64,000 bases of DNA, from contig CAVVAO010000020.1 in the NCBI GenBank assembly GCA_963746285.1, positions 9,476 to 73,475 on the forward strand. The letters are read 5' to 3'. Made by a program: the position numbers and the translations under genes. The notes beneath the pieces are model-generated. The model had not been told where the DNA came from, did not search any database, and was given only the letters and a program-made list of their open reading frames with translations. Of the stretch, positions 1,073 through 59,500 are shown piece by piece. This DNA is from Ilumatobacteraceae bacterium. GTDB taxonomy: Bacteria > Actinomycetota > Acidimicrobiia > Acidimicrobiales > Ilumatobacteraceae. The stretch's first letter is position 1; each line of letters starts with the position of its first letter.

Positions 1073-1083
1073 GATCGGTCTCC

Positions 1084-1851: not shown

Positions 1852-1895
1852 AAGGAGCCCAAGTTACCGGTGCGTCAACTTGCGCCCAAACCCGT

Positions 1896-2849: not shown

Positions 2850-2852
2850 GGC

Positions 2853-3558
2853 TCAACGACCTCCGGGCCACGAGGGAACTGCTGCGGACCGCTCTCGGCC
2901 CAGCGCTGCAAGCGCAACGTCCGGCACGTCGGTGCACACACCGTCGACGCCGAGGCCGGCGATCCGTACGAGGCGAGCCGGGTCGTTGCACGTCCAGGTG
3001 TTGACGGCCAGACCGTGGCGTCGACACAGCGCCATCAACGCCTCGTCGAGCATCGCCTCCTCGGGATGCAACGCCCGGTGTCCCGCGGCGGCGAGCCGCT
3101 CGATCGTCGGCTCGTCGACGGCGAACGAGGTGAGACACCCGGTGGCGATCTCGGGTGCGTACTGGCGACACGCGGCCACCGTGCTCCACGAGAACGAGGA
3201 GATCAACCAGCGGTCGGTCGCGCGCGGGCCTCGTCGTCGCAACTCGTCGATGACCGGGGCGACCATCGCCATCGTCGGGTCGTAGTCGGGATCGACCTTC
3301 GAGTTCTTGATCTCGACGTTCACGAGCATGCGATCGCCGCAGGCGTCGAGCGCCTCGGCCAACGTGGCCGGGGCGAGTGCTTCGACGTCGTCGATCGAAT
3401 CCGGCAACGGGTCGTGCGACCACGAGCAGCCTCCCGGTCACGCTTCGCCGCACGTCGAGTTCGACGCCGTCTGCGCCCATTCGGTCGGCGAGCGAGAAGG
3501 CCTCGGGGGTGTTCTCCGCCGCTGCAGCCGAGGCGCCGCGGTGTGCGAGGACGAGCAT
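2853..3558 (-). pseudogene. Glycerophosphodiester phosphodiesterase (GDPD), one apparent frameshift near 3413
   Basis: The N-terminus MLVLAHRGAS..ENTPEAF..GADGVELDVR lies in the frame of ORF 2827..3558. The rest (..DPLPDSIDD..VNVEIK..NTWTCNDP..GVDGVCTD) lies in ORF 2853..3407. The junction reads gtggtcGcacgacccg. Confidence 0.8.
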
Positions 3559-3733
3559 CGGCCCATGATGGTCGAACAGATCGAACGGAAGGTGAACAAA
3601 GGACGAATGGACCCTTGCGGCAACAGAACGCGGGGCCTACAGTTCCTCCCGGCCCGAGCGGCCCATCGCCCCGCAGCGATGACCCATCCCCCCGGCGGAA
3701 CACCCGCCTCAGCCACTTTCGAGGAGCACCAAC

Positions 3734-21694: not shown

Positions 21695-24352
<2,658 letters not shown>

Positions 24353-28954: not shown

Positions 28955-29726
28955 GTGCGGGGATACGACCATCGTTCGTACGGCGACGGGTTCGCCGACG
29001 TGTACGACGAGTGGTACGCCGACGTCACCGACGTCGACGCCACGGTCGCACGCATGGTCGAACTCGCCGGTGCCGGCGGGCGCGTGCTCGAACTCGGTGT
29101 CGGTACCGGACGCCTCGCGGTGCCGATGGCGGACGCGGGCCTCCACGTCGTCGGCGTCGACAGCAGCGAGGCCATGCTCGCCAAGCTGAACGAACGTGAC
29201 CCCGCTCGGAGCGTCGACGCGGTGTGCGCCGACATCACCGGCGACCTTCCGGTCGGGCCCTTCGACGTCGTACTCATCGCCTACAACACGATCTTCAACC
29301 TGCTCGGTGAACACGACCAACCGCGGCTGTTCCAGCACGTCGCCGAACGGCTCGCTCCCGGCGGCGCGTTCGTCGTCGAGGCGTTCGTGCCCGTCTCCGA
29401 CGGCGCCGATGGCACGACAACCGTCGTCGAAGGTGACCGTGCGATCGATGGCGGTCGACCACGTCGTGCTGTCGGTGTCGGTCAACCGCCCGAACGAACA
29501 GCTGGCCGAGGGTCAGTTCGTGCAGTTCTCGCAGGACGGCGGCGTGCGGCTGCGGCCGTGGTCGATCCGCTGGGCGACGCCCGAACAGCTCGACGCCATG
29601 GCGATCGCGGCCGGGCTGCGACTCGACGCGCGATTCGGCGACATGGCCGGCACGGCGTTCACGGACGACAGCGCGCAGCACGTCTCGATCTACCGCCGAG
29701 CGGGCGACGGCGTGGCAGCCGGATGA
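28955..29726 (+). pseudogene. Class I SAM-dependent methyltransferase, one apparent frameshift near 29425
   Basis: Motif I VLELGVGTGRLAVP and ..LIAYNTIFNL.. lie in ORF 28955... The C-terminal part (..VTVRSMAVDHVVLSVS..WSIRWATPEQLD..) lies in ORF 29196..29726. Confidence 0.8.
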
Positions 29727-30564
29727 CGACGCCGAAGTTCGGCCTCGGGGTTCCCAACGGCGGCGACTTCGCCGACCCGCGCCGTCTCGCTGAACTCGCC
29801 GCTGCCGCCGAAGCGTCCGGGTGGGACGGCTTCTTCCTGTGGGACCACGTCATCCGCCGCCGGCCGTGGCAGCCGATGGTCGATCCCGTGGGTGTCGCTC
29901 GCCGCGGTCGCGGTGGCGACCGAGCGGATCATCCTCGGGCCGATGGTGACCCCGCTCGCACGACGGCGGGTGTCGGTGGTCGCACGGCAGTCGGTGACGC
30001 TCGACCGGCTGTGCGACGGCCGCCTGCGACTCGGCGTCGGCCTCGGCGCGCCCGACGACGAGTTCACACGGTTCGGCGAGAGCGCCGATCCGAAGCGTCG
30101 GGCGCAGTTGCTCGACGAGTCGCTCGAGGCGTTGCAGCTGCTGTGGTCGGGCGCGGCGGTCTCCTACCGCGGCGACCTGGTGACCCTCGACGACGTCGAG
30201 TTCCGCCCCACCCCGGTCAACGGCCGCATCCCGATCTGGGTCGCCGGTGGCTGGCCGGGCGGCGCGCCCTTTCGCCGAGCTGCACGCTTCGACGGCGTCT
30301 GGCCGGTCGCGAAGGTGGGCGGCTACCTGCAGCGTCGACGAGTTCGTCGAGTGCGTCGCCGAGGTCCAGCGCCTCCGCGACACCGACGATCCGTTCGATG
30401 CGTGCTTCGTCGACCGCAGCCCGGGGCCGGCGACGCCGACGACCACCGACAAGATCGACCGACTCGTCGAGGGCGGGATGACGTGGTGGATCGACTCGCT
30501 CGACGATCCGACGGTCCCGTTCGAACGACACCTCGATCGCGTCCTGGCCGGACCTCCGAGCTGA
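29723..30564 (+). pseudogene. LLM-class (luciferase-like) flavin/F420-dependent oxidoreductase, two apparent frameshifts (about 29888 and 30325)
   Basis: Three consecutive fragments lie in three frames: MTTPKFGLGVPNGG..FFLWDH..VDP / (W)VSLAAVAVATERIILGPMVTPL..TLDRLCDGRLRLGVG / ..VDEFVECVAEVQRL... The ATG overlaps the upstream stop (ATGA). Confidence 0.8.
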
Positions 30565-30577
30565 CGTGCGCAACCGG

Positions 30578-30654
30578 CACGTTTGCGTCGCGATTCTGAT
30601 GGGACGGGTCACCGAATCCGCAACGCGAACGTGAAGTGACCGGGCCCGGCGGGC
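30578..30654 (+). repeat. Repeat family 5, diverged copy (long hairpin with apical gatgggacgggtca)
   Basis: cacgtttgcgtcgcg...cgcaacgcgaacgtg forms a 15-bp stem with 1 mismatch. It is alignable with the two tandem copies at 48080-48243. Confidence 0.65.
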
Positions 30655-30694
30655 TGACCTGGCCAACCGATCACGGGGTACCGTTGGCGGCGCC

Positions 30695-32644
30695 ATGGCG
30701 TACCGCTACCTCTGGACCCCGCAACAGCTCGGCCCCGTCGAGGTGCGCAACCGCATCGTGTTCTCCGCGCACCTCACGAACTACGCACGAGACGGGCTGC
30801 CGACCGAGCAGCACGCCGCCTACTACGGCGCCGCGGGCCGCGGGTGGCACCGGGCTCATCATCACCGAGGAGCACTCGACCCACCCGACCGACTGGCCGT
30901 ACGAGAAGCTGATCCACGGCTTCCACCGCGACGTGATCCCCGGCTACCGCACGATCACCGACGCCGTCCACCGCCACCGCGTCCCGATCTTCGCCCAGAT
31001 CAACCACAACGGCGGCCAGGCCTCCTCGATGTACTCGCGGCTGCCGGTCTGGGCGCCGTCGCCGGTCGCCGACCCGCTGTTCCGCGAGGTCCCCAAGGCG
31101 GTCACCCACGCCGAGATCGACGAGATCGTCGCCGGCTACGCCCTGGTCGCCGAACACTGCGCCGAGGGCGGGTTCGACGGCATCGAGCTGCAGTGCTCGC
31201 ACAGCTCGATCGTGCGTGGCTTCCTCTCCCCCGCCACCAACCACCGCACCGACGACTACGGCGGGTCGCTCGAGAACCGGGCTCGGCTGCTCGTCGAGAT
31301 CGTCGCCGCGGTGCGCGAGGCGATCGGACGCGGCCTGGCGCTCGGCGTGCGGATCTGCGGCGACGAGCTGATCGAGGACGGCACCACGATCGACGACGCG
31401 GTGCGCATCGCCGAGATCGTCGAGGCCACCGGGCCAGGTCGACTACATCAACACCTCGATCGGCGTCGCCACGGCGAGGCTGTTCATGATCGAGGCGTCG
31501 ATGCACATCCCGCCCGGCTACGCCATGTTCATCCCCTCCGCGATCCGCAAGGCCGTCGATCTGCCGGTCGTCGGCGTGGGCCGGTTCAAGGATCCACTCC
31601 AGGCCGAGCGGGCGCTGGCCGAGGGCCACTGCGACCTCGTCGGCGTGGTGCGCGGGCCAGATCGCCGACGCCGACTTCGCCGCCAAGGCCCGCGCCGGCG
31701 CGACCGACGAGACCCGGCTGTGCCTGTCGTGCAACCAGGAGTGCGTCGGCCGGATGGGTCTCAACCGGTGGCTCGGCTGCATCGAGAACCCGCGCACCGG
31801 TCGTGAGTCCGAGGGCGTCGGCTCGGTCAGGATGACGTCGAAGCCGAAGTCGGTGATGGTCGTCGGCGCCGGTCCGGCCGGGCTGCAGGCGGCGATCGCC
31901 GCTCGCCGCAACGGCCATCAGGTGACGGTGTACGAGAAGGAGGCGGTGGCCGGCGGCCAGGTCCGGCTCGCGGCGTCGGTGCCGAACCGGGCCGAGTTCG
32001 GCGACATGATCCGCAACCAGCTCACCGAGTGCCGGCGCCTCGGCGTCGAGTTCCAGTACGGGATCGGGGTGTGGCCGGGACTGGTCGAGGAGCAGCGACC
32101 CGACCACGTGATCGTCGCCACCGGCGCCGAAGCCGCGCGCCCGTAGTGGGTGCCCGACGACGTCGACAACGTCGTCGACGTCCGCGAGGTGCTCGACGGC
32201 TCGGCGCAGCCGTTCGGCGACGTCGTGGTGATCGACGAGATCGGCTTCCACCACGCGACCTCGACCGCCGAGGTGCTCGCCGATCGCGGCTGCGACGTCG
32301 AGATCGTCACGCCGGGCATGGTCGTCGGTCAGGACCTCGGCATCACGCTCGACATGGAGAACTGGTGGATCCGCGCCGGCGAGAAGGGGATCGTGCAGAC
32401 CACCGATCTCGTGCCGATGGCGATGGAGGGCCGCACGCTCACCCTCCTGCACCACCCGACGGGCACCAACGTGACCCGCACGCCCGACTGGGTCGTGCTC
32501 GCCGTGCACGCCAACCCCGTCGAGTGGCTCTACCACGATCTGAAGGCCGCCGGCGTCAGCGTCGAGCGGGTCGGCGACTGCGTCGCCCCCCGCCGCGCCC
32601 ACGCCGCCGTCGTCGAGGGCGAACGCGCCGGCGCCGCCGTCTGA
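30695..32644 (+). pseudogene. Old-yellow-enzyme/2,4-dienoyl-CoA reductase-like NADH:flavin oxidoreductase with C-terminal FAD/NAD(P) domain; 3 frameshifts and an in-frame TAG
   Basis: Fragments lie in ORFs 30695.., 30636.., 31486.., 31754.. and 32150... They read ..GLIITEEHS.., FAQINHNGGQ, HRTDDYGGSLENR, CLSCNQECVG, VVGAGPAGLQAA. Shifts lie near 30830, 31432 and 31655, and a TAG sits at 32144-32146 in frame. Confidence 0.85.
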
Positions 32645-32675
32645 TCACGCCAGGGGTCAGACCCCAGGCGTGATC
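32643..32675. repeat. Repeat family 2, copy b (gatcacgccaGGGGTCaGACCCCaggcgtgatc)
   Basis: 15 of 16 arm positions are complementary. It overlaps the stop of the oxidoreductase and precedes the GH3 start. Confidence 0.75.
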
Positions 32676-32691
32676 GTGCAAGACTCGCGAC

Positions 32692-35228
32692 GTGATCGAC
32701 ATCGACGCGGCACTGGCCGCACTCTCACTCGACGACAAGTGCCGCCTCGTGGCCGGCGAGACCACGTGGCGCACGCACGCGTTCCCCGAGGCCGGCGTCC
32801 CGCAGATCAAGATGTCCGACGGACCCAACGGTGTCCGCGGCGAGGGCCACGGTGGAGCAGGAACGCCCGGCGTGGTGGTGCCGTCGGGCATCACCACGGG
32901 CGCGACATGGGATCCCGATCTGGCCGCCGAACTCGGCGCGCTGCGTCGGCATCGAAGCGATCCGCAAGGGCGCACACATCGTGCTCGGCCCCACCGTCAA
33001 CCTGCATCGCACGCCCGTCGGGGGACGCACGTTCGAGTGCTACAGCGAGGATCCCGAGCTCAGCGGCTCGCTCGGATCTGCCTGGGTCCGCGGCGTCCAG
33101 TCACACGACGTGGCCGTCACCGTCAAGCACTTCGTGGCCAACGACACCGAGGTCGAACGGATGACCGTCGACGTCGACGTCGACGAGCGCACGCTCCGCG
33201 AGCTCTACCTCCGACCGTTCGAGCGCACCGTCAAGGAAGCGGGCGCCTGGGGCATCATGAGCTCGTACAACAAGGTCGCCGGCGAACACGCCGCACAGAA
33301 CCGACGGCTGCTCACCGAGATCCTGCGCGACGAGTGGGGCTTCGACGGTTTCGTCGTGTCCGACTGGTACGGCGTCCACGAGGCCGCCCCCGCGGCGAAC
33401 GCCGGCCTCGACCTGGAGATGCCCGGACCGGTGCGCGTCTACGGCGACAAGCTGGTGGCCGCGGTCGAGCGGGGCGACGTCGACGAGGCACAGGTCGATC
33501 GGCTCGTGCGCGACCTGCTCGTACTCGCCAACCGGGTGCGCGCCGACGAGCGCTCGGCCGACCGAGCCGAGGAGTCGGTCGACGACCCGGACGAGCGGGC
33601 GCTCACCCGACGTGCGGCGATCGCCGGCACCGTGCTGCTGCGCAACGAGCCCCGTCAGGCCGGCGCCGCGCCCGTCCTCCCGGTCGACGCGACCGACGAT
33701 CCGGCGGTCGCGGTGATCGGCCCGAACGCGGCGATCGACCGGTGCATGGGCGGTGGTTCGGCCAGCCTCACCCCGTTCCGCCACCGCACGTTGCTCGCAG
33801 GCGATCACCGACCGCCTCGGCCCGGGCACGGCGACCGATGCCGAGATCGTGTACGAGACCGGTGTGCGCATCGACCGGCTCACCCCGGTCGTCCGCAAGG
33901 GCCAGCTCGCTCAGCCCGACCGGCGACCCGGGACTCACCGTCTCGTACGTCAACGGCAGCGACTGGACCGCCGATGTCGTCCTCGAACAGCCGACACCGA
34001 CCACGCTCGTCCGATTCTTCGGATCGGTTCCCGCGGGCGTCGACCCACGGAAGTTCTCGGCCCGGATCGAGGGCTCGTTCGTCCCCGACGTCGACGGGCC
34101 GCACACGATCGGCGTCGTGACCACCGGCCCGATGGCCGTCGCGGTCGACACCGGCAACGGCCTCGAGGAGGTGCTCGACGATCGGGACATGTCGCTGCCG
34201 CGCAGCGAGGAGTTCTTCGGCTACGGGAGCATCGAGGTCACCCACGACATCGAGTGCCGCGCCGGCCAGGCCGTTCCGCTGGACATCGGTTTCGCAACAG
34301 CGTCAGGCAACGGGTTCGCCGCGATCCGCGTCGGGATCCGCCCGCCGGAACCGGCCGACCTGATGGACCGGGCCGTTGCCGCTGCCGCCGACGCCGACCT
34401 CGCGGTGGTGATGGTCGGCACGAACGACGAGTGGGAGACCGAGGGTCACGATCGCACGACGATGGACCTGCCCGGCCGCCAGGACGAACTCGTCCGCCGC
34501 GTCGTCGCGGCGAATCCGAACACGGCGGTGATCGTGAACGCCGGATCGCCGGTGACGATGGACTGGGCCGAGCCGGACGATCCGGGTTCGGCACCTGCCG
34601 TTCTCACGTCGTTCTTCGCCGGCCAGGAACAGGCCGAGGCACTCGTCGACGTGCTCCTCGGTGTCGCCGATCCCGGCGGCCGTCTGCCCACGACCATCCC
34701 GAAGCGCCTCATCGACCATCCCGCGTACCTCTTCCTCGCGCCCGACCACGACAGCACCGGGGCCGGCACCCAGCGCTACGGCGAGGGCCTGTTCATCGGC
34801 TACCGCGGGTACGACGCCCGCGAACTCGCTCCCCGGTTCGCCTTCGGCCACGGCCTGAGCTACGGCGCCGCCGACTGGGGTGAGCCGACCGCCTCGGCCA
34901 CGACGATCGCGGTCGGCGACACGGTCGACGTGACGGTGCCGGTGACGTGCCACCGGCGAACCGCGACGCGACCGTCGTCGTCCAGGGCTACGTCGCGCCG
35001 GTGGCACCGATCGGCCGTCCGACCGCCCGAAGGAACTGAAGTCGTGGGCCAAGCTCGTGGTCCCGGCGGGCTCCACAGTCGGACGCGACGCTGCACTTCG
35101 GCCCCGAGGCGTTCCACCACTGGGACACCGCGACCGCCGGCTGGCTGATCGAACCGGGCGAGTACGACCTCGTCATCGGCGCCTCGGCCGACGACGAACA
35201 CGCCCGCATCCGCATCACCGTCACCTGA
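32692..35228 (+). pseudogene. Glycoside hydrolase family 3 beta-glucosidase, at least 7 apparent frameshifts
   Basis: GH3 motifs are spread over three frames (KMSDGPNGVRG; GPTVNLHRTPVGGRTFECYSEDP; KHFVANDTE; GFVVSDW; ..NDEWETEGHDR..DLPG.Q..L; C-terminal ..HFGPEAFHHWD..W.IEPGEYDLVIGASADD). Shifts lie near 32945, 33795, 33905, 34948, 34961, 35015 and 35080. Confidence 0.9.
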
Positions 35229-35242
35229 CCGCAACTCACCCG

Positions 35243-35364
35243 CCCAGCGATGAGCCAACCGCCCGAATAGCGACACTTCGCTCATCGCACACCGGAGACC
35301 TGACCCAGCGATGAGCCAACCGCCCGAATAGCGACACTTCGCTCATCGCAGACCGGAGACCTGA
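35243..35364 (+). repeat. Repeat family 4: two tandem 61-nt units, each with the hairpin gcgatgagc-n24-gctcatcgc
   Basis: Units 35243-35303 and 35304-35364 differ at one position. An inverted, diverged copy lies at 50877-50923. Confidence 0.85.
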
Positions 35365-35419
35365 CGGGCGGAGCGATCGAGGGCGACAGGCCGACGATGG
35401 CCGCTAGCGTCGGAGCGTC

Positions 35420-36109
35420 ATGGTCGGCATCGTCGCCAACATCATCACCGACTTCACCGACTGGATCGACGAGTTCTCCGCGAACTGGTGGTTCCTGCTC
35501 GTCATCTTCGCGGTGGCGCTGCTCGACTCGGTGCTCCCGATCGTCCCGGGCGAGACGACGGTCATCGCGGGCGGCGTCGCTGCCGGCGCCGGCAATCAGA
35601 GCCTGGCCCTCGTGATCTTCGCCGGTGCGTCCGGCGCCTTCATCGGCGACAACCTCGCGTACTCGATCGGCAACCACTTCGAACCACGGGTGCGGGCGTG
35701 GGCCGCACGCAAACCGAACCGTGCGGCCCGGCTCGATTCGGCCGGGCGCCAGATCAAGAAGCGCGGCGGGATGCTGCTCGTCACGGCCCGATTCATCCCG
35801 GGTGGGCGCAGCATCCTCACGATCTCGTCGGGCATCACCCAACAACCACGAGTGTGGTTCGCGACCTGGGTGGCGATCGCGGTGACGATCTGGGCGACGT
35901 ACGCGGCCGTGCTCGGCTACCTGTTCGGACAGGCGTTCGAGGACAACCACACCGCGGCGTTCTGGCTGGCGTTCGGCACGGCCCTGTCGATCACCCTGCT
36001 CGTCGAGGTGATCCGCTGGATCAGGGATCGCCGAGCCGCGAGCAGGGCGATACCGGCCGTCGCAGTGATTGCGCACGCCGACGACGCCGACCGTACGCTG
36101 GGCGGATGA
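35420..36109 (+). CDS. DedA/VTT-domain family membrane protein
   Basis: 229 aa with ..LLDSVLPIVPGETTVIAGG.. and ..FIPGGRS... Its stop overlaps the next start (ATGA at 36106-36109). Confidence 0.85.
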   Translation: MVGIVANIITDFTDWIDEFSANWWFLLVIFAVALLDSVLPIVPGETTVIAGGVAAGAGNQSLALVIFAGASGAFIGDNLAYSIGNHFEPRVRAWAARKPNRAARLDSAGRQIKKRGGMLLVTARFIPGGRSILTISSGITQQPRVWFATWVAIAVTIWATYAAVLGYLFGQAFEDNHTAAFWLAFGTALSITLLVEVIRWIRDRRAASRAIPAVAVIAHADDADRTLGG

Positions 36110-37076
36110 TCGCTCTGGTCCCGGTTCGCGACGGCGTGCTGCCCGCCGGCGCACCCGACGCGATCGCCGAGGCCGGCGGCCGCGTCGTGATCGCCGGATC
36201 GGGGACCGCCGACGCCGCCATCGACGGGCTGGCATCGCAGGTGTACCTCGCCGAACTCGGCCCCGTCGAGATCGCACGCTGGACCAACGCCCTGGCATCC
36301 GCCGTCGCCAATCTCGCCGACAGCGACATCGTGGTCCTCCCCCACTCACCGGACGGCCGCGACCTCGCCCCCCGCCTGGCCGCAGCACTCGAGCGACCGC
36401 TGCTCGCCGGCGCTACCGAGGTCGGCGCCCACCGCGTCCGTGTCGCCGCGCCGCGGCGGACTCGAACTTCACGAGCTCCGGCCGACCGGTCCGTTCGTCG
36501 CCACGCTGCAACCGGGCACCCGCGGCGGCCTCACGCTCGGCACGCCGCCCGAGGTGCACCAGCTCGATCTCGATGCCGCCACCATGCCTTTCGGGTCGGG
36601 TCCGAAAAGACGGGTCCGAAAGACTGGCGAGACGCACGACGCGCAGGTGGTCGAGGTGTTGCCGCCCGACGTGATGACGATGGACCTCACCGAGGCGAGC
36701 CGGATCGTGGGCGGTGGCGCCGGCCTCGACAGCAATGATCGCTTCGTCCAACTCGACCGATTCGCGGTCGCCATCGGGGGCGTGATGGGAGCCACCCGGG
36801 TGATCACCGACCGCTCGTGGGTGCATCACGACCGTCAGATCGGCACGACCGGCGTGGTCGTCGACCCCGAGCTGTACCTGTCGTTCGGTGTGAGCGGCGC
36901 CGTCCAGCACACGAGCGGGCTCGGCCAACCCGACCACATCATCAGCGTGAACACCGATCCGCACTGTCCCGATGATGTCGATGTCCGACCTCGCGATCGT
37001 CGCCGACGCCAACGAGACGCTCGAGGAACTGCTTCGTCAACTCGACGCCACCGACGCGACGCGGGAGACCTCGTGA
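36106..37076 (+). pseudogene. EtfA/FixB-like electron transfer flavoprotein alpha subunit (second copy), two apparent frameshifts (about 36445 and 36968)
   Basis: The N-terminus MIALVPVRDG.. lies in the frame of ORF 35488... The FAD-domain core (..IVGGGAGL..FAVAIGGVMGATRVITD..W..QIGTTGVVV.P.LYLSFGVSGAVQH) lies in ORF 36440... The C-terminus PMMSMSDLAIVADANETLEELLRQL..* lies in a third frame and ends at 37076. Confidence 0.8.
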
Positions 37077-38372
37077 CCCTCGACGCCATCGTGGTGGGCG
37101 CCGGACCGGCGGGGTCGGCGGCCGCCACGGTGCTGGCCCGCAAGGGCTACTCGGTGATCCTGCTCGAACGGGGTTCGTTTCCCGGGTCGAAGAACATGTA
37201 CGGCGGCGTGGTGTACCCGCGCATCCTCGATCAGCTGCACCCCGAATGGTGGAACGACGCGCCGATCCAGCGCTGGATCACCCGCCGCTCGACGATGGTG
37301 CTCACCGACACCCAGGCGCTCACGGTCGACTTCCGCTCGGCCAACTGGGGCCGACCTCCCTACAACGGCGCCACCGCGTATCGCCCCGACTGGGACCACT
37401 GGCTGGCGAGCAAGGCCGAGGCCGACGGTGCCCAGCTCGTCTGTTCCACCACCGCCACCGGCCTGCTGCGCGACGCGGGCGGCCAGGTCATCGGCGTCAC
37501 CACCGACCGCCCCGACGGCGACCTGCACGCTCGCGTCGTCATCGCCTGCGACGGTGTGAACAGCTTCCTCGCCAAGGAGGCAGGTCTGTACGGCGAGGTC
37601 GACGCCGCCAACTACACCGTCGGCGTCAAGGAGACCATCGCGCTGCCCAAGCACGTGATCGACGAGCGCTTCGGCGTGCGCGATCGCGAGGGGGTCGACA
37701 TCGAGATCCTCGGTGGCACATCGGGCGTGAACGGCGGAGGGTTCGTCTACACGAACCTCGACACGCTCGCCGTGGGCGTGGTGCTGAAGCTCCCCAAGCT
37801 CGCCGCCCAGCAGCTGCGGCCCGAGGAGATCATCGCCAACCTCAAGGTCACACCCGGGCATCGCCCCGCTGGTCGAGGGTGGCGAGATCAAGGAGTACTC
37901 GGCCCACGTCATCCCCGAGGCCGGCCTGTCGATGATGCCGAAGATGACCGGCGACGGGATGTTGGTCGCCGGTGACGCCGCGGCGTTGTGCCTGGCGGCC
38001 GGCATCTGGCTCGAAGGCGTGAACTTCGCGATGGCGAGTGGGATGTACGCCGCCGAGGCCGCCGCCGAGGCGCTCGCCGCGAACGACACCTCGGCCGACG
38101 GGTTGGCCGGATACGAACGGCGCCTGAACGACACGTTCGTGCTCCGCGACCACCGCAAGCTCCGTCGCGCCCCGTCGCTCGTGCTGTCCGATCGCGTTCA
38201 GCATCTCTATCCAGACATGATCGCCAATACGGTGGAGCGCATGTTCCGCGTCGACAATCCAGCACCCAAGCCGGGCCTGCGGCGCATGCTCGACGAGGAG
38301 CGCAGACGCGCCGGCGTCAAGCTCAAGGATCTGGCGCGCGACGCTCTCGACGGCCTGCGGAGTTTCGGGTGA
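37073..38372 (+). pseudogene. fixC: FixC-type ETF-quinone oxidoreductase (FAD), one apparent frameshift near 37850
   Basis: The GTG start overlaps the upstream stop (GTGA). Motifs include DAIVVGAGPAGSAAA..LLERG.FPG.KN..GG and, after the shift, ..APLVEGGEIKEYSAHVIPE.G...PKMTGDGMLVAGDAA.. Confidence 0.85.
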
Positions 38373-38665
38373 GCGAGCGCTGGCCCGAGCTCTCGTTCGA
38401 GGACCTGATCGGCACGACCCGCTTCGACGTCCACGAGCGCGCCCACATCACCGTCGACGACGAGATCTGCGCCGACTGCTCGACCCGCGGTTGCGTGGTC
38501 GCCTGCCCCGCCAACCTGTTCGTGCCGACGAGCGACGGCGGGATCCTCTTCAACTACGAGCAGTGCTTCGAATGTGGCACGTGCTACCTGGTGTGCAACG
38601 AGGAAGGCGCCATCACCTGGACCTATCCCGAGGGCGGCCACGGCGTCGTCTTCAAGCGAACCTGA
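38369..38665 (+). CDS. fixX: FixX-type ferredoxin-like protein
   Basis: 98 aa from a GTG overlapping the fixC stop (GTGA). It carries CxxC..C..CP and C..C..C motifs (ICADCSTRGCVVACPANLF..CFECGTCYLVC). Confidence 0.85.
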   Translation: MSERWPELSFEDLIGTTRFDVHERAHITVDDEICADCSTRGCVVACPANLFVPTSDGGILFNYEQCFECGTCYLVCNEEGAITWTYPEGGHGVVFKRT

Positions 38666-38683
38666 CGGCGCGATGGGGACCTC

Positions 38684-39568
38684 GTGACGATCGCCGTCTG
38701 CTGGAAGTGGGTGTCGCTCGACCGCGAGCGTGAAGCCGACCGACGGTGGTCGGGTGTCTCTGCCGCCGACGAGGCGGCGCTCGAGGTCGCGCTGGGCCTC
38801 GCCGAACGAGCCGACGAGACACCCGGCGCGCCCCCGAGTGAGGTCACGGTGATCTGCCTCGGACCGCCGAGCGCAGACGACGTGCTGCGCGACGCCATCG
38901 CGGCCGGAGCCACCGCTGCCGTGCGTGTCGACGCCTCGACCGAACTCGACAGCCAGGTCGTCGCCGTCGCACTCGCCGAACACCTCGGCGACCGGGATCT
39001 CGTCGTGTGCGGCGACTACTCGCTCGATCGCGGCACCGGCTCCGTCCCGGCGTTCCTCGCCGGCGAGCTGTCGATGGCCCAGGCGCTCGGGCTGGTGGAG
39101 GTCGACCTCGACCGCAACGACGCGGGCACGCGGTCCCCGGAGACCCGGGCTCGGGGAACCACGACCGCCCTGCGCGTCGTTCGGCGTCTCGACGGCGGGC
39201 GGCGCGAGATCCTCGACGTGACCCCGCCGGCGGTGCTGTCCGTCGAGGGCTCGACCGCGTCGCTGCGCCGTGCGTCGCTGGCGGCGTCGCTGGCTGCTCG
39301 CACCGCACCGGTCACGACGGTTCGCGGACCACATGGCCGCCTCCCGGAGGCCGAGATCCACCCGTACCGGCCGAGGGCACGCGTCCTGCCCGCCCCCAAG
39401 GGTCGGTCGCTCGACCGCGTCCGCCAGATCCTCGACGTCGGCGGCAGCGACACACACGCCGAACTCGTCACGCTCGACGCACCGGCGGCCGCGTCGAAGA
39501 TCCTCGACCAGCTCCGCAGCTGGGGGTACCTCGATGCTCCTGCATCGGGACGCCCCGGAGCGCGCTGA
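38684..39568 (+). CDS. EtfB/FixA-like electron transfer flavoprotein beta subunit (second copy)
   Basis: 294 aa with MTIAVCWKWV.., ..LVVCGDYSLDRGTGSVPAFLAGEL.. and an EtfB-like fold pattern. It is divergent from the canonical EtfB at 1084-1851. Confidence 0.75.
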   Translation: MTIAVCWKWVSLDREREADRRWSGVSAADEAALEVALGLAERADETPGAPPSEVTVICLGPPSADDVLRDAIAAGATAAVRVDASTELDSQVVAVALAEHLGDRDLVVCGDYSLDRGTGSVPAFLAGELSMAQALGLVEVDLDRNDAGTRSPETRARGTTTALRVVRRLDGGRREILDVTPPAVLSVEGSTASLRRASLAASLAARTAPVTTVRGPHGRLPEAEIHPYRPRARVLPAPKGRSLDRVRQILDVGGSDTHAELVTLDAPAAASKILDQLRSWGYLDAPASGRPGAR

Positions 39569-39577
39569 GCCGCCGCG

Positions 39578-41542
39578 ATGCGACTGGGCGACGCGACGTG
39601 GCCGGAGGTCCACGGCATCACACGACGGCGTACCGACGAAGAGGCACCCGCGCCCATCGTGTTGATTCCGGTCGGCTCGACCGAGCAGCACGGACCCCAC
39701 CTCCCGCTCGCGACCGACACGATCATCGCCGAGGAACTCGCCGGGCGGGCGGTCCACCACACCGATGGCCTGATGATCGGCCCGACGATCGGTGTGACAT
39801 CGTCCGGTGAGCACGCCGGCTTCCCGGGCACGCTGTCGATCGGTTCGACGGTGACCACCTCGGTGATCGTCGAGTTGGTCCGCAGTGCCGACTGGGCTGC
39901 GGGCGTCGTACTGGTCAACGGTCACGGCGGGAACCACGCCTCGATCTCCGAGGCCGTGGCGATCGTCACCGCGGAGGGGCGTCGCGCCCTCGCCTGGTCG
40001 CCGAAGTGGCCGCAACGTCGCGACGGCGGGCCTGCCGATCTCCACGCGGGGCGTATCGAGACCTCGATGATGCTGGCGATCGATCCCGGCCTGGTGCGAC
40101 TCGAACTCGCCGAGCGAGGCGCCGACGCCACGATCGCGGAACTCCGTGAGCGGGGCGTGCGCGCCGTGAGCGCCAGCGGTGTCCTCGGTGACCCCGACGG
40201 TGCGTCCGGTCGGGAGGGCGAACGGTTCATCACCGCGTTCGTCGCCGACCTCGTCCACCAGATCGAGCGCTGGCGACCGCTCGACCCTCCGGCACGGATG
40301 GCTGAGGTGCGGCTCCGAGTCGACGGGTCCTGGCAACGGTTCGGCGACGCCGTGCTGGCGGGGTCGCCGCTGCGCCTCTTCCGCCTGACCGCAGGCGGCG
40401 TCGCGGTCGCCGAGGACATCGAAGCAGGCCGCGAGGTGCGCCGCTCGACCTTGACCGACCGTCTCACCGACGCCGGCGCGGCACATCCGATGCCAGCGAC
40501 CGCGTCGTCGCAACGGTTCTCCGTCGATGACGTCACCGTGGTCACACCACAGCTCGGCGGCGTCGCCCACGACGACGGGCGCCTCACCGTCGACGACGGA
40601 TCCGTTCCCCCGCTCGCCTCGGCAAGCGTACGGCTCGACGCCAACCGAGGTCCCGCAGCGGCGCGGAATGCCGCGAGACCGCTCGTCGCCACGCCGCTCG
40701 TCGCGTTCGTCGACGCCGACGTCACCACGTCGCGACGGGAGTGGTTCGTTCCGTTGCTCTGGCATTTCGACGACCCTCGGGTCGCGATGGTCGCTCCCCG
40801 GGTACGGGGCGAGGTCCGGTCGCCGCTCGACCTCGGTGATCAGCCGGGTCGGGTCCGCGCCGGAACCCGGGTGAGCTACGTGCCGGGCGCGGCGCTGGTG
40901 GTGCGTGTCGAGGCGCTCGACGCGATCGGGGGCTTCGACGAGCGGCTGCGCTTCGGCGAGGACGTCGACCTGGTCTGGCGTCTCGACGACGCCGGATGGC
41001 ACTGCCGCTACGACCCCGCCGTGACCGTGTGGCACGAGCCACGCGACACCTGGCGGGCACGACTCCGCCAACACGCCGGCTACGGGACTTCCGCCGCGCC
41101 GCTGGCGTTGCGACACCCGAGGGCCTTGTCGCCGCTGCACGTGAACGGCTGGACCGCAGCGACGTGGTCGATGGCGCTGCTGGGTTGCGTCGCGGGAGCG
41201 CTCGCGTTGGGAGCGGGCAGCAGTGCGGCCCTCATCCGCAAGCTGCCCGACGTACCGCCCCGCGCCTCGTTCGGGCTGGCGGTGCGCGGCCACCTCCTCG
41301 CGGGTCGACAGATCGCCGAGTCGGCTCGCCGGGTCTGGTGGCCGATCCTCGTCGTTGCGGCGCTCGTGTCTCGTCGCGCCCGCTGGTGGGCGGCGCTCGC
41401 ACTGTTGAGCGATGTGCGCCGCGCCCCGACCGACCTCGCGTACGGCTGGGGGGTGTGGGTCGGAATGCGCCGCGTGCGCACGCTGGCGCCGCTGGTGCCC
41501 CGCCTCAGCGCATGGCCGGGGCGTCAGCGGACACGTGCGTGA
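39578..41542 (+). CDS. mftE-mftF: In-frame MftE-like (creatininase-family peptidase) and MftF-like (mycofactocin glycosyltransferase) open frame
   Basis: Residues 1-240 carry the creatininase motifs (PVGSTEQHGPHLPLATD, NGHGGN, HAG..ET). From MAEVRLRVDG (ATG 40298, same frame, no stop) the sequence aligns by eye with mycobacterial MftF (LAGSPLRLFRL; VAFVDADV; W..LL.HF.DPRVA.VAPR; SYVPGAALV; GEDVDLVWRL; C-terminal TM region). Confidence 0.85.
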   Translation: MRLGDATWPEVHGITRRRTDEEAPAPIVLIPVGSTEQHGPHLPLATDTIIAEELAGRAVHHTDGLMIGPTIGVTSSGEHAGFPGTLSIGSTVTTSVIVELVRSADWAAGVVLVNGHGGNHASISEAVAIVTAEGRRALAWSPKWPQRRDGGPADLHAGRIETSMMLAIDPGLVRLELAERGADATIAELRERGVRAVSASGVLGDPDGASGREGERFITAFVADLVHQIERWRPLDPPARMAEVRLRVDGSWQRFGDAVLAGSPLRLFRLTAGGVAVAEDIEAGREVRRSTLTDRLTDAGAAHPMPATASSQRFSVDDVTVVTPQLGGVAHDDGRLTVDDGSVPPLASASVRLDANRGPAAARNAARPLVATPLVAFVDADVTTSRREWFVPLLWHFDDPRVAMVAPRVRGEVRSPLDLGDQPGRVRAGTRVSYVPGAALVVRVEALDAIGGFDERLRFGEDVDLVWRLDDAGWHCRYDPAVTVWHEPRDTWRARLRQHAGYGTSAAPLALRHPRALSPLHVNGWTAATWSMALLGCVAGALALGAGSSAALIRKLPDVPPRASFGLAVRGHLLAGRQIAESARRVWWPILVVAALVSRRARWWAALALLSDVRRAPTDLAYGWGVWVGMRRVRTLAPLVPRLSAWPGRQRTRA

Positions 41543-42146
41543 ACCGAGCGACGTCCGTGGCGGCGGGCACTTCCTCCCGAGCCTCGACGATCGCGCCGCC
41601 GCAGCCGGTCGCTGATGTCGTTGCAGTCGGCACAGCCCCAGATCGCGCTGTAGGCGATGCAGCCGAGACAGATCGCGAAGACGGCTTCGAGCGTGGCGGC
41701 CACCGCGAGCAGCCCCGTCAGCACCAGCGCGACGCTCGGGTGCACCGAGCGCCCACGCGAGCGATGCCGACGCCGTGAAGGCGAGCCCGATCGCCTGCGC
41801 GAAGCGCTTCGGCCGAGCCGGGAACCTGCCGCGATTCGAACCCTGGTCGGCGGCGATGCAGCTGTCGCTCGACTGCAGGGGTGGCGATCCTGGTGACGAA
41901 CTGTCCGAGCGGCGAGAGGGTCGGTCCGGTGGCCACGCGTGCGAGGAAGCCGTAGGTGAGCGGCACGAGCACCCACCACTCGCGCACGACGAGGAACACG
42001 ATCGCCTGGGCCACGACACCGGCGGCGACGAGGCGGGCCGAGGTCTCGTTGACCGGGTCCGGAAAGCTCAGCAGTCCTCGCAGGTTCACCTCGGAAACGC
42101 TATCGCCGACAATCCCGATCAACAAGGTCGGGATTCGTGGAGCCAT
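41524..42146 (-). pseudogene. DUF4395 domain membrane protein, at least 2 apparent frameshifts
   Basis: The fragments lie in three frames: N-terminus (..SFPDPVNETSARLVAAGVV..LTYGFLARVATGP.LSPLG), middle (..PKRFAQAIGLAFTASASL..) and C-terminus (..AATLEAVFAICLGC..). Confidence 0.55.
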
Positions 42147-42193
42147 CGAGTGCGTCGCTCCCGCGGCGACGACTCGCCAGTAGCGTCGCCGAC

Positions 42194-43113
42194 GTGACGA
42201 TCACCCTCACTGTGCGCACCGCGTCGTGGCGGGCTCACGTCGCACGCGTCGCGAACACCGTCGAGGGACTCGTCCCCGTCGTGAAGGGCAACGGCTACGG
42301 GTTCGGACGCGTCGCCCTCGCCGAGATCGCCGCCGAGTTCTGCGACACCGTGGCGGTCGGCACCGTGCACGAACTCGACGGGTTGCCCGACCGATCTCCA
42401 CGCGGTCGTCCTCACGCCGACGCTCGTCTGCGCCGGCATCGACGGACCCGGTGCTGACCGTCGGCCAACGGGCCCACCTCGAGTGCCTCGACGGATGGGA
42501 CGGCAGGGTGCTCGTCAAGCTCGAATCGTCGATGCACCGCTACGGCGGAGGCATCGAACTGGTCGACGTCGCCCGGGAACGAGGCCTGGACGTGATCGGC
42601 GTCAGCATCCACCTTCCCCTGGCCGGATCGCCCGCCGAGCATGCCGACGAGATCCGCACGACGATCGCCGAGGTCGACGCCGACCTCCCGGTCTGGCTCA
42701 GCCACCTCGATCCCGCGACGTACGACTCACTGCCCGCGACGCACACCTATCGCCTCCGCCTCGGTACGTCGCTCTGGCACGGCGACAAGTCCACGTTGCA
42801 GCTGCACGCGGACGTCCTCGACGTCCGAGCGATCCGCGCCGGCGAGCACGCCGGCTACCACCAGGGCCCGGTCGGCGACGACGGCCACCTCGTGATGATC
42901 GGCGCCGGCACGGCCAGCGGGGTCACGGCACTGCCCGACGGCCGCAGTCCGTTCCACTTCGAACGGCGGCGGCTTCGACTCCACGAGGCCCCCCACATGC
43001 ACACCTCGATGGCGTTCGTCCCCGCCGGCGATCCCGTTCCCGACATCGGCGAGCGCGTCGACGTGCAGCGGCCGCTCACGATGACGACCGTCGACACCGT
43101 CGACTGGATCTGA
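42194..43113 (+). pseudogene. Alanine racemase-fold (PLP) family protein, one apparent frameshift near 42395
   Basis: PLP-Lys motif VVKGNGYGFG in ORF 42137.., with the remainder in ORF 42226..43113 (..KLESSMHRYG.., ..LSHLD..). Confidence 0.7.
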
Positions 43114-43128
43114 ACGACGGGTCTCTCG

Positions 43129-44262
43129 GTGGGCCTGAGCGTTCCGACCTCGACGTTCGCCGACACCGCTCCGTCCGCCCGGCTCGCGGGACCCGACGTG
43201 GTCCGCGCCGTCGCCCTGATCGGCGTGGTCGTCATGAACTTCCACGGCTACCTGATCCTGCGCGCCATCGATTCGGGTGAGCGTCGATGCTCGCACCGGA
43301 TGGCTCGACGAGCTCTTCGATCCGTGGGACGGGCCGCTGTCGACACGCTTCGCGGCGACATTCGTCCTCGTCGCCGGCGTCGGCGTGACGCTGCTCACAC
43401 GGCGCGCACTCGGCGATCCCGCACGCGTCAGGGAGATGCGATGGCGCCTGGTCCGGCGCGGCGTGCTGCTGTACGTCGTCGGACTGCTGCTCGAACAGAT
43501 CTGGCCGGGAACGATCATCGTCTACTACGGGGTGATGTTCGTGCTGGCGGCAGGAATCTTCACCTGGCGGTCGCGATGGATCGTCGCGACCGGGGTCATC
43601 ACCGCGGTCGCCTCCACGCCTGCTGCGGTCGTGGAGATTCGACCGTGCCCGCAACGGCGCGTCGACGAGTTGGCTCACGTCGCCCGGCGACGACTCGATC
43701 CGCCGTTACGTCTTCGACGTGTTCGTCAACGGGACGCACCCGTTGCTGCCGTGGTTCTCGTTCCTCTGCGCGGGGATCGTGCTGGGCCGGATCCTGCCGT
43801 TGCGGTGGTGGCGGCGGGCGACCGTCAGCGTCGGGCTCGCATCCGTGTCGGGCGCGTGGATCCTGTCGGCGCTCCTCGCTTCCGGCGCAGGCGACGTCGA
43901 CGGCCTCGCAGGGGTCGATCTTCTCGACGGACCCGCTCGACCGCAGCATCGTCTACGTGGCGAGCGCGTTGGGCACGGCACTGCTCGCGTACGCCGCGAT
44001 CGACTGGCTGGCCGAGCGCTTCCCAGGGCGACCGACCCGTTGCGCCGCGCCGGACAGCTGACGCTGTCGCTGTACCTCGCCCACGTCTTCGTGTTCAACC
44101 TGCTGGTCGACTGGCTCGGATGGATCGAACCGGCCGGCACCTCGCGCGGCGTTGCTCTTCGCCGCAGGTTTCTGGGTGGCAGCGATCGCCCTGGCAGCGT
44201 GGTGGCAGCGCCGATTCGGACGGGGCCCCGCCGAGTACGTCTACCGGGCGTTCGGCGGCTGA
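43129..44262 (+). pseudogene. DUF418/YeiB-like membrane protein, about 5 apparent frameshifts
   Basis: Hydrophobic fragments alternate among all three + frames (..VRAVALIGVVVMNFHGY.. / ..FAATFVLVAGVGVTLL.. / ..NGTHPLLPWFSFLCAGIVLG.. / ..YVASALGTALLAYA.. / ..QLTLSLYLAHVFVFN.. / ..GRGPAEYVYRAFGG*). Confidence 0.65.
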
Positions 44263-50876: not shown

Positions 50877-50923
50877 CAGCGATGAGCGAAAAGCCGCTAT
50901 CCGGGCGGTTCGCTCATCGCTGG
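50877..50923 (-). repeat. Repeat family 4, inverted diverged copy (ccagcgatgagcgaa-n17-ttcgctcatcgctgg)
   Basis: 15-bp perfect arms. The loop is alignable with the reverse complement of the 35.2-kb units. It lies between convergent stops at 50845 and 50939. Confidence 0.75.
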
Positions 50924-58457: not shown

Positions 58458-59500
58458 GTGTCAAGCGCCCCGAGCTCATCGGGCTCGGGCGCGCTCGTCG
58501 GCGCCGGCGCGCTCCTCGCTGCGATCGGCACGCGACTGATCACCGGGCCGATCGCGATCCTGGCGCTGTCGCTGGTGCTGGCCAGCGTGCTGATGCTGAT
58601 CGTCGTCGCGGTCACCGGCACACCGGAGACCAGGCGCAAGATCGCGCCGTACGGGCTGCTCAAGCCCGGCATGCTCTGGTTGGCGCTGTTCTATCTGGCG
58701 CCGCTGTTCACCCTGCTGCGGCTGTCGTTGTCGACGCTGCCGAGCCGGTTCGCCGTCGAGGCCGAGTTCGACTGGAACTTCGACAACTACGTCACCGCGT
58801 TCACCGACTTCGGGCCGCAGTTCCAGCGAGCGTTCGTCTACGCCGGCATCGCCACCGTGCTCACGATCGTGATCGGCTACCCGCTCGCCTACGTGATCGC
58901 CTTCCGCGGCGGCAAGTACCGAACGCTGCTGCTCGGGCTCGTGGTCATCCCGTTCTTCACGTCGTACCTGATCCGCACCATCGCGTGGCGGAGCCTGCTG
59001 TCCGACAACGGGCTTCGCGACCGGCTTCATCGACGCGGTCGGTCTCACCTGGTTCTTCGAGGCCGCGAACATCATGGACAACGGCCGGTTGATCAACACG
59101 CCGGCCGCCGTGATCTTCGGGCTCACCTACAACTTCCTGCCGTTCATGATCCTGCCGATCTACGTGAGCCTGGAGAAGATCGACGTCCGGCTGCGTCGAC
59201 GCGGCGAAGGACCTGTACTCGACCTCGACGTCGGCGTTCGCGAAGATCATCGTGCCGTTGTCGGTGCCGGGGATCTTCGCCGGCACGCTGCTGACGTTCA
59301 TCCCCGCCGCCGGCGACTTCGTCAACTCGCTCTACCTCGGCAGTCCGAACACCACGATGATCGGCAACTCGATCCAGGACCAGTTCCTCGTGCAGAACAA
59401 CGTGCCGCTGGCGTCGGCGATGTCGTTCGTGCTGATGTTCATCATCACGGTGTTCGTGATCATCTACAGCCGGTTCTTCGGGACCGAGGACCTGGCGTGA
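58458..59500 (+). pseudogene. potB: Polyamine ABC transporter permease (PotB-like), two apparent frameshifts (about 59011 and 59195)
   Basis: Fragments lie in ORFs 58458.., 59074.. and 59252... The first junction reads aacGGGctt where aacggcttc restores ..SDNGFATGFIDAVGLTWFF... It carries an EAA-type loop (..DAAKDLY..). Confidence 0.8.

Follow-up and report, generated by a model that had tools for sequence, protein, structure and literature searches.

An Acidimicrobiia-type mycofactocin gene cluster with its own ETF and FixCX: a candidate electron route from mycofactocinol to quinone

Positions 35420–41542 of a 64,000-nucleotide stretch of an Ilumatobacteraceae genome assembly (contig CAVVAO010000020.1; the whole stretch, with a base composition of ~69% G+C, is referred to as the window) encode a DedA-family membrane protein, the two subunits of an electron transfer flavoprotein (ETF), the FixC and FixX components of a putative ETF:quinone oxidoreductase, and MftE and MftF of the mycofactocin system. 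By identity and conservation, these genes are with high confidence the 3' half of a mycofactocin gene cluster of Acidimicrobiia type. This gene arrangement occurs widely and has database family names already, but its function is putative. The ETF and FixCX may form an electron route from mycofactocinol to quinone, and the breaks seen in several reading frames are most likely assembly errors. Taken as a whole, this explanation (cluster type, electron route and assembly errors together) is the best that we can offer and, in our judgement, lies a little on the probable side of even.

Organisation of the operon

The seven genes from DedA to mftF form one translationally coupled operon. The genes, the convergent gene that follows them and a second ETF locus in the window are as follows.

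35420–36109, plus strand: DedA/VTT-family membrane protein, operon gene 1 (PF09335 VTT_dom, 60.6 bits; weak DedA/UptA matches)
36106–37076, plus strand: mft_etfA, mycofactocin-associated ETF alpha subunit (NF038209, PF00766 ETF_alpha); 1-nucleotide insertions at 36448 and 36967
37073–38372, plus strand: FixC-type ETF:quinone oxidoreductase flavoprotein (NF007542/NF007450); 1-nucleotide insertion at 37848
38369–38665, plus strand: FixX ferredoxin-like protein, intact (NF011993, Fer4_9; two 4Fe-4S-type Cys motifs)
38684–39568, plus strand: mft_etfB, mycofactocin-associated ETF beta subunit, intact (TIGR04503)
39578–40305, plus strand: MftE creatininase-family peptidase (TIGR03964); 1-nucleotide deletion at ~40289, stop TGA at 40303–40305
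40307–41542, plus strand: MftF-like GT2 glycosyltransferase, 411 residues, GTG start, C-terminal membrane segments (TIGR03965 best match)
41505–42146, minus strand: convergent DUF4395 gene (PF14340 in orthologues); 1-nucleotide insertions at 41595, 41736 and 41816
104–1851, minus strand: housekeeping etfB (1084–1851) and etfA (104–1072) (NCBIfam ETF matches; close homologues annotated as ETF alpha)

An earlier note on this DNA had described the same-strand order DedA, EtfA, FixC, FixX, EtfB, MftE/MftF, and this order is confirmed by NCBIfam and Pfam matches and by the positions of the open reading frames (ORFs). The stop/start overlaps that it had reported (ATGA at 36106–36109, GTGA at 37073–37076 and GTGA at 38369–38372) and the remaining gaps of 18 and 9 nucleotides are likewise present, as is the canonical housekeeping etfBA pair at 104–1851. 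The DUF4395 gene overlaps the 3' end of mftF and marks the operon boundary; its end at 41505 is estimated from the overlap in relatives. A promoter and terminator scan of 35100–42300 found none, and an Rfam search of the window returned no match.

Identity of the ETF and FixCX subunits

All predicted coding segments of the window were scanned with NCBIfam, whose curated cut-offs are 200 bits for mft_etfB (TIGR04503), 240 for mft_etfA (NF038209), 172 for MftE (TIGR03964), 280 for MftF (TIGR03965) and 793.15 for the FadH/OYE-family oxidoreductase OYE2 (TIGR03997). Related loci and contigs fetched for comparison carry L labels; the principal one, L001, is a short-read metagenome contig with 89–91% DNA identity to the window over the operon region. 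EtfB of the window passes its cut-off with 216.9 bits (E 3.7e-64, profile positions 20–289 of 290). The etfA gene is split in the window by its two insertions, and its pieces give 112.3 bits (profile positions 1–108) and 194.9 bits (113–278) against NF038209, which is their sole strong family match. Both scores are below 240, a level that the gene would reach with its two insertions removed; the intact EtfA of L001, 91–92% identical to these pieces in amino acid sequence, passes with 352.4 bits. Because the two subunits match the NCBIfam families named mycofactocin-associated ETF alpha and beta, the link between mycofactocin and an ETF is already catalogued, although these families are bioinformatic definitions. 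The earlier proposal of a dedicated ETF paralogue that belongs with the mycofactocin genes agrees with both matches and with its position beside MftE and MftF.

The intact FixC of L001 matches the C chain of Thermotoga maritima EtfABCX (7koe_C, 1.2e-75) and, more distantly, ETF:quinone oxidoreductase (2gmh, 1e-21), and the ratio of nonsynonymous to synonymous substitution rates (dN/dS) between the window and L001 is 0.07–0.12 for this gene. FixX scores 51.5 bits against NF011993 and matches 7koe_D at 2.2e-17; its dN/dS is 0.02, and the exact protein is present on 21 other contigs. The NCBIfam scores of FixC and FixX lie below the cut-offs of models that are tuned to E. coli. EtfB has matches at E<=1e-30 in 155 clusters of 50% identity; it is distant from solved ETF beta chains, its best solved match being 4kpu_B at 2.6e-9, and the matches to 7KOE are 2.7e-7 for ETF beta and 1e-20 for ETF alpha. 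In an exact-protein look-up, the MftE/MftF ORF of the window and the housekeeping EtfA were without a match, and the housekeeping EtfB was found on one 1.9-kb contig.

The set resembles the FixABCX/EtfABCX systems of Azotobacter vinelandii (Fix) and T. maritima (PDB 7KOE) in that four subunits (alpha, beta, FixC and FixX) are co-encoded, with 4-nucleotide overlaps joining etfA, fixC and fixX in the window. It differs in gene order, which is beta-alpha-C-X in those systems and alpha-C-X-beta here, in the strong divergence of the ETF subunits and in the setting of the genes between a DedA gene and mftE-mftF.

MftE and MftF

MftE (39578–40288) scores 229.2 bits against TIGR03964, well above the cut-off of 172, and 185 bits against PF02633 Creatininase. 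TIGR03965 is the best match of MftF by more than 200 bits, but the scores of 272.9 bits (window) and 267.3 bits (L001) fall short of 280. The earlier assignment of the creatininase and GT2 halves of the apparent fusion to the MftE and MftF families thus stands for MftE, and for MftF as a best match just under the threshold. MftF also matches the GT2 models Glyco_tranf_2_3, Glyco_trans_2_3 and Glycos_transf_2 of Pfam and has the acidic motifs VDDGS and FVDADV, expected of a GT2 catalytic site, in its translation; 411-residue homologues are named mycofactocin system glycosyltransferase.

The loci include a soil clade, to which the window belongs, and freshwater relatives. The soil-clade MftF has 411 residues (40307–41542 in the window) and is 48 residues shorter than the 459-residue freshwater protein (L085, 11430–12809). 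It is the N-terminal part of the GT2 domain that is shorter, which places the soil-clade protein just under the equivalog cut-off (about 270 against 280); for its positional orthologue in L085 the score is 366.5 bits. Between the window and L001, dN/dS is 0.11 for mftE and 0.12 for mftF, and this purifying selection on both genes argues that the substrate of MftE and MftF is still made. The DedA gene has a dN/dS of 0.12.

Conservation of the gene order

Sixty-two diverse ETF-beta representatives were aligned and the alignment was scanned against 185,579 species genomes, which yielded 413 loci encoding a relative. Cluster records of ten ETF-beta representatives carried no taxonomy. The best 80 of the 413 loci are labelled Acidimicrobiia (mostly metagenome-assembled genomes (MAGs) of Ilumatobacteraceae) or at phylum or class level only, with three odd labels (Gemmatimonadaceae, Bifidobacterium). 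Among the 63 Acidimicrobiia loci with enough flanking sequence, 57 have DedA, EtfA, FixC, FixX, EtfB, MftE and MftF collinear on one strand, so that the linkage of the ETF/Fix genes with mftE-mftF, in the alpha-C-X-beta order that the earlier note had singled out, is kept in relatives. Adjacency of mftE and mftF was counted in 67 related loci, and mftF lies directly 3' of mftE in 65 of them. Some loci carry extra genes between etfB and mftE: a secreted protein, beta-propeller-like by eye, in L069 (10780–12321), and a LuxR-type response regulator, a histidine kinase and a low-complexity protein in L072 (10864–14043).

The connection to the 5' half of a mycofactocin cluster is seen in relatives. 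L085 and the near-identical L135 hold a continuous cluster in the order mftA-mftB-mftC-OYE1-PlsY-OYE2-DedA-EtfA-FixC-FixX-EtfB-MftE-MftF, in which the mftA product ends in IDGMCGVY and MftA, MftB, MftC, OYE1 and MftF all pass their cut-offs. L147, a high-GC metagenome contig, carries mftA-B-C-OYE1, further along OYE2 and further still EtfA-FixC-FixX-EtfB-MftE, all on one strand. OYE1 directly follows mftC in L085, L086, L147 and L151. L104 (5233–10045) and L149 (445–5268) have mftA-B-C-PlsY-DedA-MftE-MftF with no ETF, OYE or MftD, and L207 (88–4130) has mftABC-PlsY-DedA-MftF with no ETF, OYE or MftD and with MftE not detected. Since the ETF genes are absent from these three loci, ETF/FixCX behaves as a cassette between DedA and mftE; DedA and a PlsY-like acyltransferase, present in all three, appear to be regular members of this cluster type.

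In the freshwater contigs L086 and L087, mftABC-OYE1 is a separate locus beside two Zn-dependent alcohol dehydrogenases, which are likely to be mycofactocin-dependent dehydrogenases of freshwater Ilumatobacteraceae. The two alcohol dehydrogenase genes (6944–9464 in L086, 7099–9518 in L087) are divergent from mftA, and one of them is split in L086. The distance in L086 between mftABC-OYE1 and the housekeeping etfAB is about 8 kb.

Compared with the canonical Mycobacterium cluster mftABCDEF(G), MftE and MftF are adjacent and in the usual order, and related lineages have mftA-mftB-mftC upstream on the same strand. The cluster type differs in having no mftD or mftG and in the interleaving of DedA, PlsY, two FadH/OYE enzymes and ETF/FixCX, and the window's clade is without the mftABC part within 35 kb upstream or 22 kb downstream.

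Absence of mftABCD and mftG from the window

The absence of mftABCD from the window, reported in the earlier note, was upheld by the NCBIfam scan and by motif searches. The scan gave no match to TIGR03969, TIGR03967, TIGR03962 or TIGR03966, and no MftA, MftB, MftC, MftD, MftR or MftG; the window also contains no ORF ending in the MftA C-terminus (G[VIL]Y-stop), no in-frame radical-SAM motif, no MftD motif (VSNHGG), no PROSITE GMC signature and no TIGR03970 match. The further claim that this absence is itself unusual did not hold, as a split cluster is typical of the soil clade, and the absence is not evidence that the system works without mftABCD.

A protein search with the MftC of L085 recovered, at >=80% identity, freshwater relatives only, none of them on a contig known to carry the operon. 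A scan of metagenomes for the MftA C-terminus found the high-GC contigs L100, L132, L158, L190 and L208, whose MftC is 79–82% identical to that of L085; these contigs cannot be tied to the genome of the window.

The GMC and MftD motif searches covered the window and the 94 other loci fetched by then. The GMC signature is absent from all of these and present in three long canonical control clusters. The MftD motif VSNHGGNNLD, which 20 of the 120 canonical clusters contain, was found neither in the window nor within about 10 kb of the cluster in the 94 other loci and in L104, L147, L149, L151 and L207. These genomes may have mftD at a site away from the cluster, or a different enzyme may take over its function.

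MftG is the GMC-family mycofactocin dehydrogenase of mycobacteria (PMC11778925). The gene was found in 235 of 311 mftC genomes, so that about a quarter are without it, and an MftG mutant keeps residual mycofactocinol oxidation (PMC11778925). Four Acidimicrobiia isolates, namely Ilumatobacter coccineus (a cultured species), an Iamia sp. and two Aquihabitans spp., are listed as MftC-positive and MftG-negative in a table of the same study (PMC11778925).

Genes upstream of the operon

The stretch upstream of the DedA gene contains the following features.

30695–32644, plus strand: OYE2, mycofactocin-system FadH/OYE family oxidoreductase 2 with FMN, [4Fe-4S] and an FAD/NAD-type domain (TIGR03997)
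32692–35228, plus strand: beta-glucosidase of glycoside hydrolase family 3 (GH3) with several frame breaks, between OYE2 and DedA (NCBIfam beta-glucosidase matches in two stretches)
35249–35347, no strand assigned: two tandem palindromes of 38 nucleotides resembling repetitive extragenic palindromic (REP) elements, with a 61-nucleotide period, GATGAGCcAA-N18-TTCGCTCATC, in the GH3-DedA spacer

OYE2 lies 2.8 kb upstream of the operon and is spread over four frames by three breaks. The frame-repaired, concatenated pieces (30855–32617) score 808 bits against TIGR03997, above its cut-off, and the N-terminal piece alone also matches; the Cys motif CLSCNQEC...C is present in the translation. The closest solved relatives of an intact OYE2 (L089) are 2-naphthoyl-CoA reductase (6qkg), FadH (1ps9), histamine dehydrogenase and trimethylamine dehydrogenase (TMADH). 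The match to TMADH, which has been solved in complex with its ETF (1o94), is at ~6e-50. An upstream OYE2 accompanies the operon in 54 of the 57 collinear loci. Three conserved parts of an MftG-less mycofactocin cluster are the dedicated ETF, the pair of ETF:quinone oxidoreductase type and an Fe-S flavoenzyme of the FadH/TMADH family.

In 38 of 57 loci, which make up the soil clade including the window, the GH3 gene separates OYE2 from DedA; the L001 orthologue of this gene (1089–3614) encodes 841 residues with Glyco_hydro_3, Glyco_hydro_3_C, PA14 and Fn3-like domains. Mycofactocin bears a beta-1,4-glucose chain added by MftF, and a role of the GH3 enzyme in trimming this chain is conceivable.

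The REP-like element, GATGAGC(G/C)AA-N18-TTCGCTCATC, occurs in one to four copies in the GH3-DedA spacer of many relatives; among the fetched loci it is seen at L007 6503–6662, L014 4288–4447 and L005 20606–20704. Its inner stem varies with compensatory changes between lineages, and it is a dispersed intergenic element with no Rfam match. In the window it is found at 35249–35286, 35310–35347 and 50881–50918, the last being an unrelated intergenic site; the hairpins upstream of DedA were considered as an operon-specific operator, and this was rejected given the same element at unrelated intergenic sites.

Frame breaks and the apparent MftE-MftF fusion

The earlier note had read the region as six intact genes, with MftE and MftF fused. 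At this base composition ordinary ORF lists are swamped by spurious frames, and third-position GC (GC3) was therefore used to follow the coding frame; frame changes were located by GC3 frame analysis together with three-frame translation. The frame steps by +1 near 36448 and 36967 in etfA and near 37848 in fixC, so the reading of six intact genes has to be given up: etfA carries two 1-nucleotide insertions and fixC one.

Alignment with L001 and then with eight relatives revealed seven 1-nucleotide indels private to the window within 35300–42200: insertions at 36448, 36967, 37848, 41595, 41736 and 41816, and a deletion at 40289. The eight relatives each have zero to two private non-triplet indels over this 6.9 kb, against seven in the window. 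L001 encodes intact proteins throughout (DedA 229 residues, EtfA 323, FixC 432, FixX 98, EtfB 283, MftE 246 and MftF 411). Once the frames are repaired, no piece contains a stop codon, and dN/dS against L001 on either side of the breaks is 0.02–0.17, like that of intact genes, except for one 35-codon piece at 0.45; within EtfA the values per piece are 0.14–0.45.

The 654-residue MftE/MftF ORF (39578–41542) arises because one base is missing at ~40289. This deletion sits 15 nucleotides 5' of the mftE stop and shifts the last codons of MftE into the frame of mftF. Alignment of the junction with the eight relatives gives TGA-C-GTG, and the window retains both the mftE stop TGA (40303–40305) and the mftF GTG start (40307). 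MftE and MftF are encoded by separate genes in 65 of 67 related loci, and the fusion in the window is most likely an artefact. A read-through from MftE to MftF without a stop is also present in L067 (12385–14349) and in L057 (10811–13048); L057 is a heavily fragmented long-read MAG, and the case in L067 may be a true fusion or another error.

The breaks extend beyond the operon. About twenty further abutting same-strand segments in shifted frames, nearly all displaced forward by one base, are found in the window (22288–24304, 28979–35228, 41505–43877 and 58494–59494), concentrated at 22–44 kb and in potB, which suggests an error-prone stretch of the assembly. The genes for NAD-dependent DNA ligase (ligA), a methyltransferase, an LLM oxidoreductase, an alanine-racemase-like protein and DUF418 are broken, as is potB; OYE2 has three breaks, GH3 about four and DUF4395 three. 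L005, L055 and L057, whose contig names are in long-read style, are similarly fragmented, and in short-read relatives at about 90% identity the genes are intact. The breaks in etfA and fixC and the MftE-MftF read-through are most likely assembly errors and not biology, since the indels are private, the restored frames are free of stops, dN/dS is low, and ligA and others are broken as well.

A candidate electron route and its alternatives

By analogy with the TMADH-ETF pair, nicotinoprotein dehydrogenases would reduce mycofactocin to mycofactocinol, which would be re-oxidised by OYE2 or directly by the ETF; the ETF would then pass the electrons via FixCX, as ETF:quinone oxidoreductase, to menaquinone. 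The route would do the job of the mycobacterial GMC enzyme MftG, which is also encoded with mft genes and for which the proposed role is the same, namely the return of electrons from mycofactocinol to the respiratory chain; MftG belongs to an unrelated protein family, and neither the window nor any ETF-type locus contains its GMC signature. Replacement of MftG by an ETF-to-quinone route is plausible, and the route from mycofactocinol through the ETF and FixCX to quinone has, in our estimate, a chance at or somewhat below even.

The adjacent OYE2 is the likeliest entry point, as its relatives include trimethylamine and histamine dehydrogenases. An ETF is the physiological acceptor of trimethylamine dehydrogenase. 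In the TMADH-ETF pair of Methylophilus methylotrophus (PDB 1O94), the dehydrogenase is homologous to OYE2, the window likewise encodes an ETF near OYE2, and EtfB matches 1o94_C; the differences are that OYE2 is closer to 2-naphthoyl-CoA reductase and FadH, and that the GH3 gene separates OYE2 from the ETF.

Several observations weigh against this explanation. Co-transcription of OYE2 with the ETF is unlikely here, because the GH3 gene and the REP-like hairpins intervene. Solved ETFs of the bifurcating and of the canonical kind are equally remote from the ETF subunits; the ETF may contain one FAD or two, and the electrons may flow in either direction. MftF stays under its equivalog cut-off in both the window and L001. 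mftABC is missing from the 64-kb window (35 kb upstream and 22 kb downstream of the operon), and the soil-clade operon contigs L093 and L094 lack mftABC at the position where it lies in L086. The earlier note held that an ETF route is hinted at by database family names and not by experiment, and this proved accurate: the families exist, and the literature library that was searched returned no paper or experiment joining mycofactocin with an ETF, and no paper on mycofactocin with Acidimicrobiia.

Other uses of the same electron carriers have to be weighed. The system could run in reverse or bifurcate, in which case NADH or mycofactocinol, as the mid-potential donor, would reduce quinone and at the same time give low-potential electrons. 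These electrons might go to MftC, the radical-SAM maturase, or might hold mycofactocin, or the ETF itself, in the reduced state as donor for FadH/OYE-type ene- or dienoyl-reductases. FixC and FixX are clearly homologous to their counterparts in T. maritima EtfABCX, which bifurcates. Among solved structures, EtfB is matched best, if weakly, by bifurcating ETFs (4kpu_B, 7koe_A), and OYE2 is nearest to reductases (6qkg, 1ps9). Characterised four-subunit ETFs of Fix type, that of A. vinelandii among them, bifurcate, and Fix-like homologues are predicted to do so (PMC6085437). The ETF subunits, however, differ greatly from every solved ETF, and in loci with mftC at another site the operon still keeps together with mftE/mftF and OYE2, which fits poorly with a task for MftC only. 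The Acidimicrobiia of these loci are also mostly aerobic organisms of soil and freshwater. A reverse or bifurcating role is unlikely, with roughly a one-in-five chance. We regard as more doubtful still a biosynthetic role, in which OYE1 or OYE2 would take the place of MftD and carry out the FMN-dependent oxidative deamination that gives rise to the redox-active keto-amide, with electrons passing to the ETF and quinone and not to oxygen. The MftD motif, present in a sixth of the canonical clusters (20/120), is absent from the window and all Acidimicrobiia-type loci searched, OYE2 belongs to a family of amine-oxidising, ETF-linked dehydrogenases (TMADH, histamine dehydrogenase), and OYE1 is directly 3' of mftC in four loci (L085, L086, L147 and L151). 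Yet in L104 and L149 an OYE, an ETF and MftD are all missing from the vicinity, so that the gene for MftD may just be at another site in the genome; the search for MftD covered the fetched loci, and a four-gene electron-transfer chain would be a large investment for a step needed in catalytic amounts only.

Two further alternatives concern whether a working mycofactocin system is present at all. It is very improbable that the operon is not for mycofactocin, with its MftE/MftF-like enzymes and ETF acting on another substrate and the names reflecting guilt by association: the soil-clade MftF, under the cut-off and 48 residues shorter than the L085 protein, and the unlinked mftABC of most loci would fit such a case, but MftE scores above its equivalog cut-off, the MftF orthologue of L085 does so by a wide span (366.5 against 280), and L085/L135 and L147 have the operon in one contiguous cluster with a bona fide mftA-mftB-mftC. 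Slightly less probable again is that the frameshifts are real and that the genome carries a decaying mycofactocin remnant from which mftABC has already been lost. The sequence as given does have three breaks in etfA and fixC and one in mftE, with no mftABCD within 64 kb; against decay, every indel is a private single base, the restored frames are stop-free with dN/dS of 0.02–0.17 save in the one 35-codon piece (0.45), the same type of break affects ligA and about twenty other places, L005, L055 and L057 with their long-read-style names are similarly fragmented, and short-read relatives at about 90% identity are unbroken. An Acidimicrobiia-type cluster with a candidate ETF/FixCX route and an error-prone assembly remains our preferred explanation.

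Implications

The window itself calls for practical caution: errors in the sequence most likely account for its broken genes and for the seeming fusion, and it adds no unique biology beyond its intact relatives. The wider interest lies in the operon, which is a concrete candidate for the return of electrons from mycofactocin to respiration in MftG-less genomes, and which is strongly conserved, as part of the mycofactocin cluster, across a whole class of actinobacteria that are abundant in soil and freshwater and have no MftG in their clusters.

The membership of DedA and of a PlsY-like protein, together with the missing MftD, points to unexplored variation in mycofactocin biosynthesis. As a tentative extension, which we think possible and no better than that, mycofactocin in Acidimicrobiia may be wired unlike that of mycobacteria, with a FadH/OYE Fe-S flavoenzyme passing electrons to a divergent ETF and on through FixCX to menaquinone in place of MftG, and an OYE paralogue might replace MftD. 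If the proposed route is true, this would be the first ETF with a peptide-derived cofactor as its upstream donor, in place of an acyl-CoA or amine dehydrogenase or NADH.

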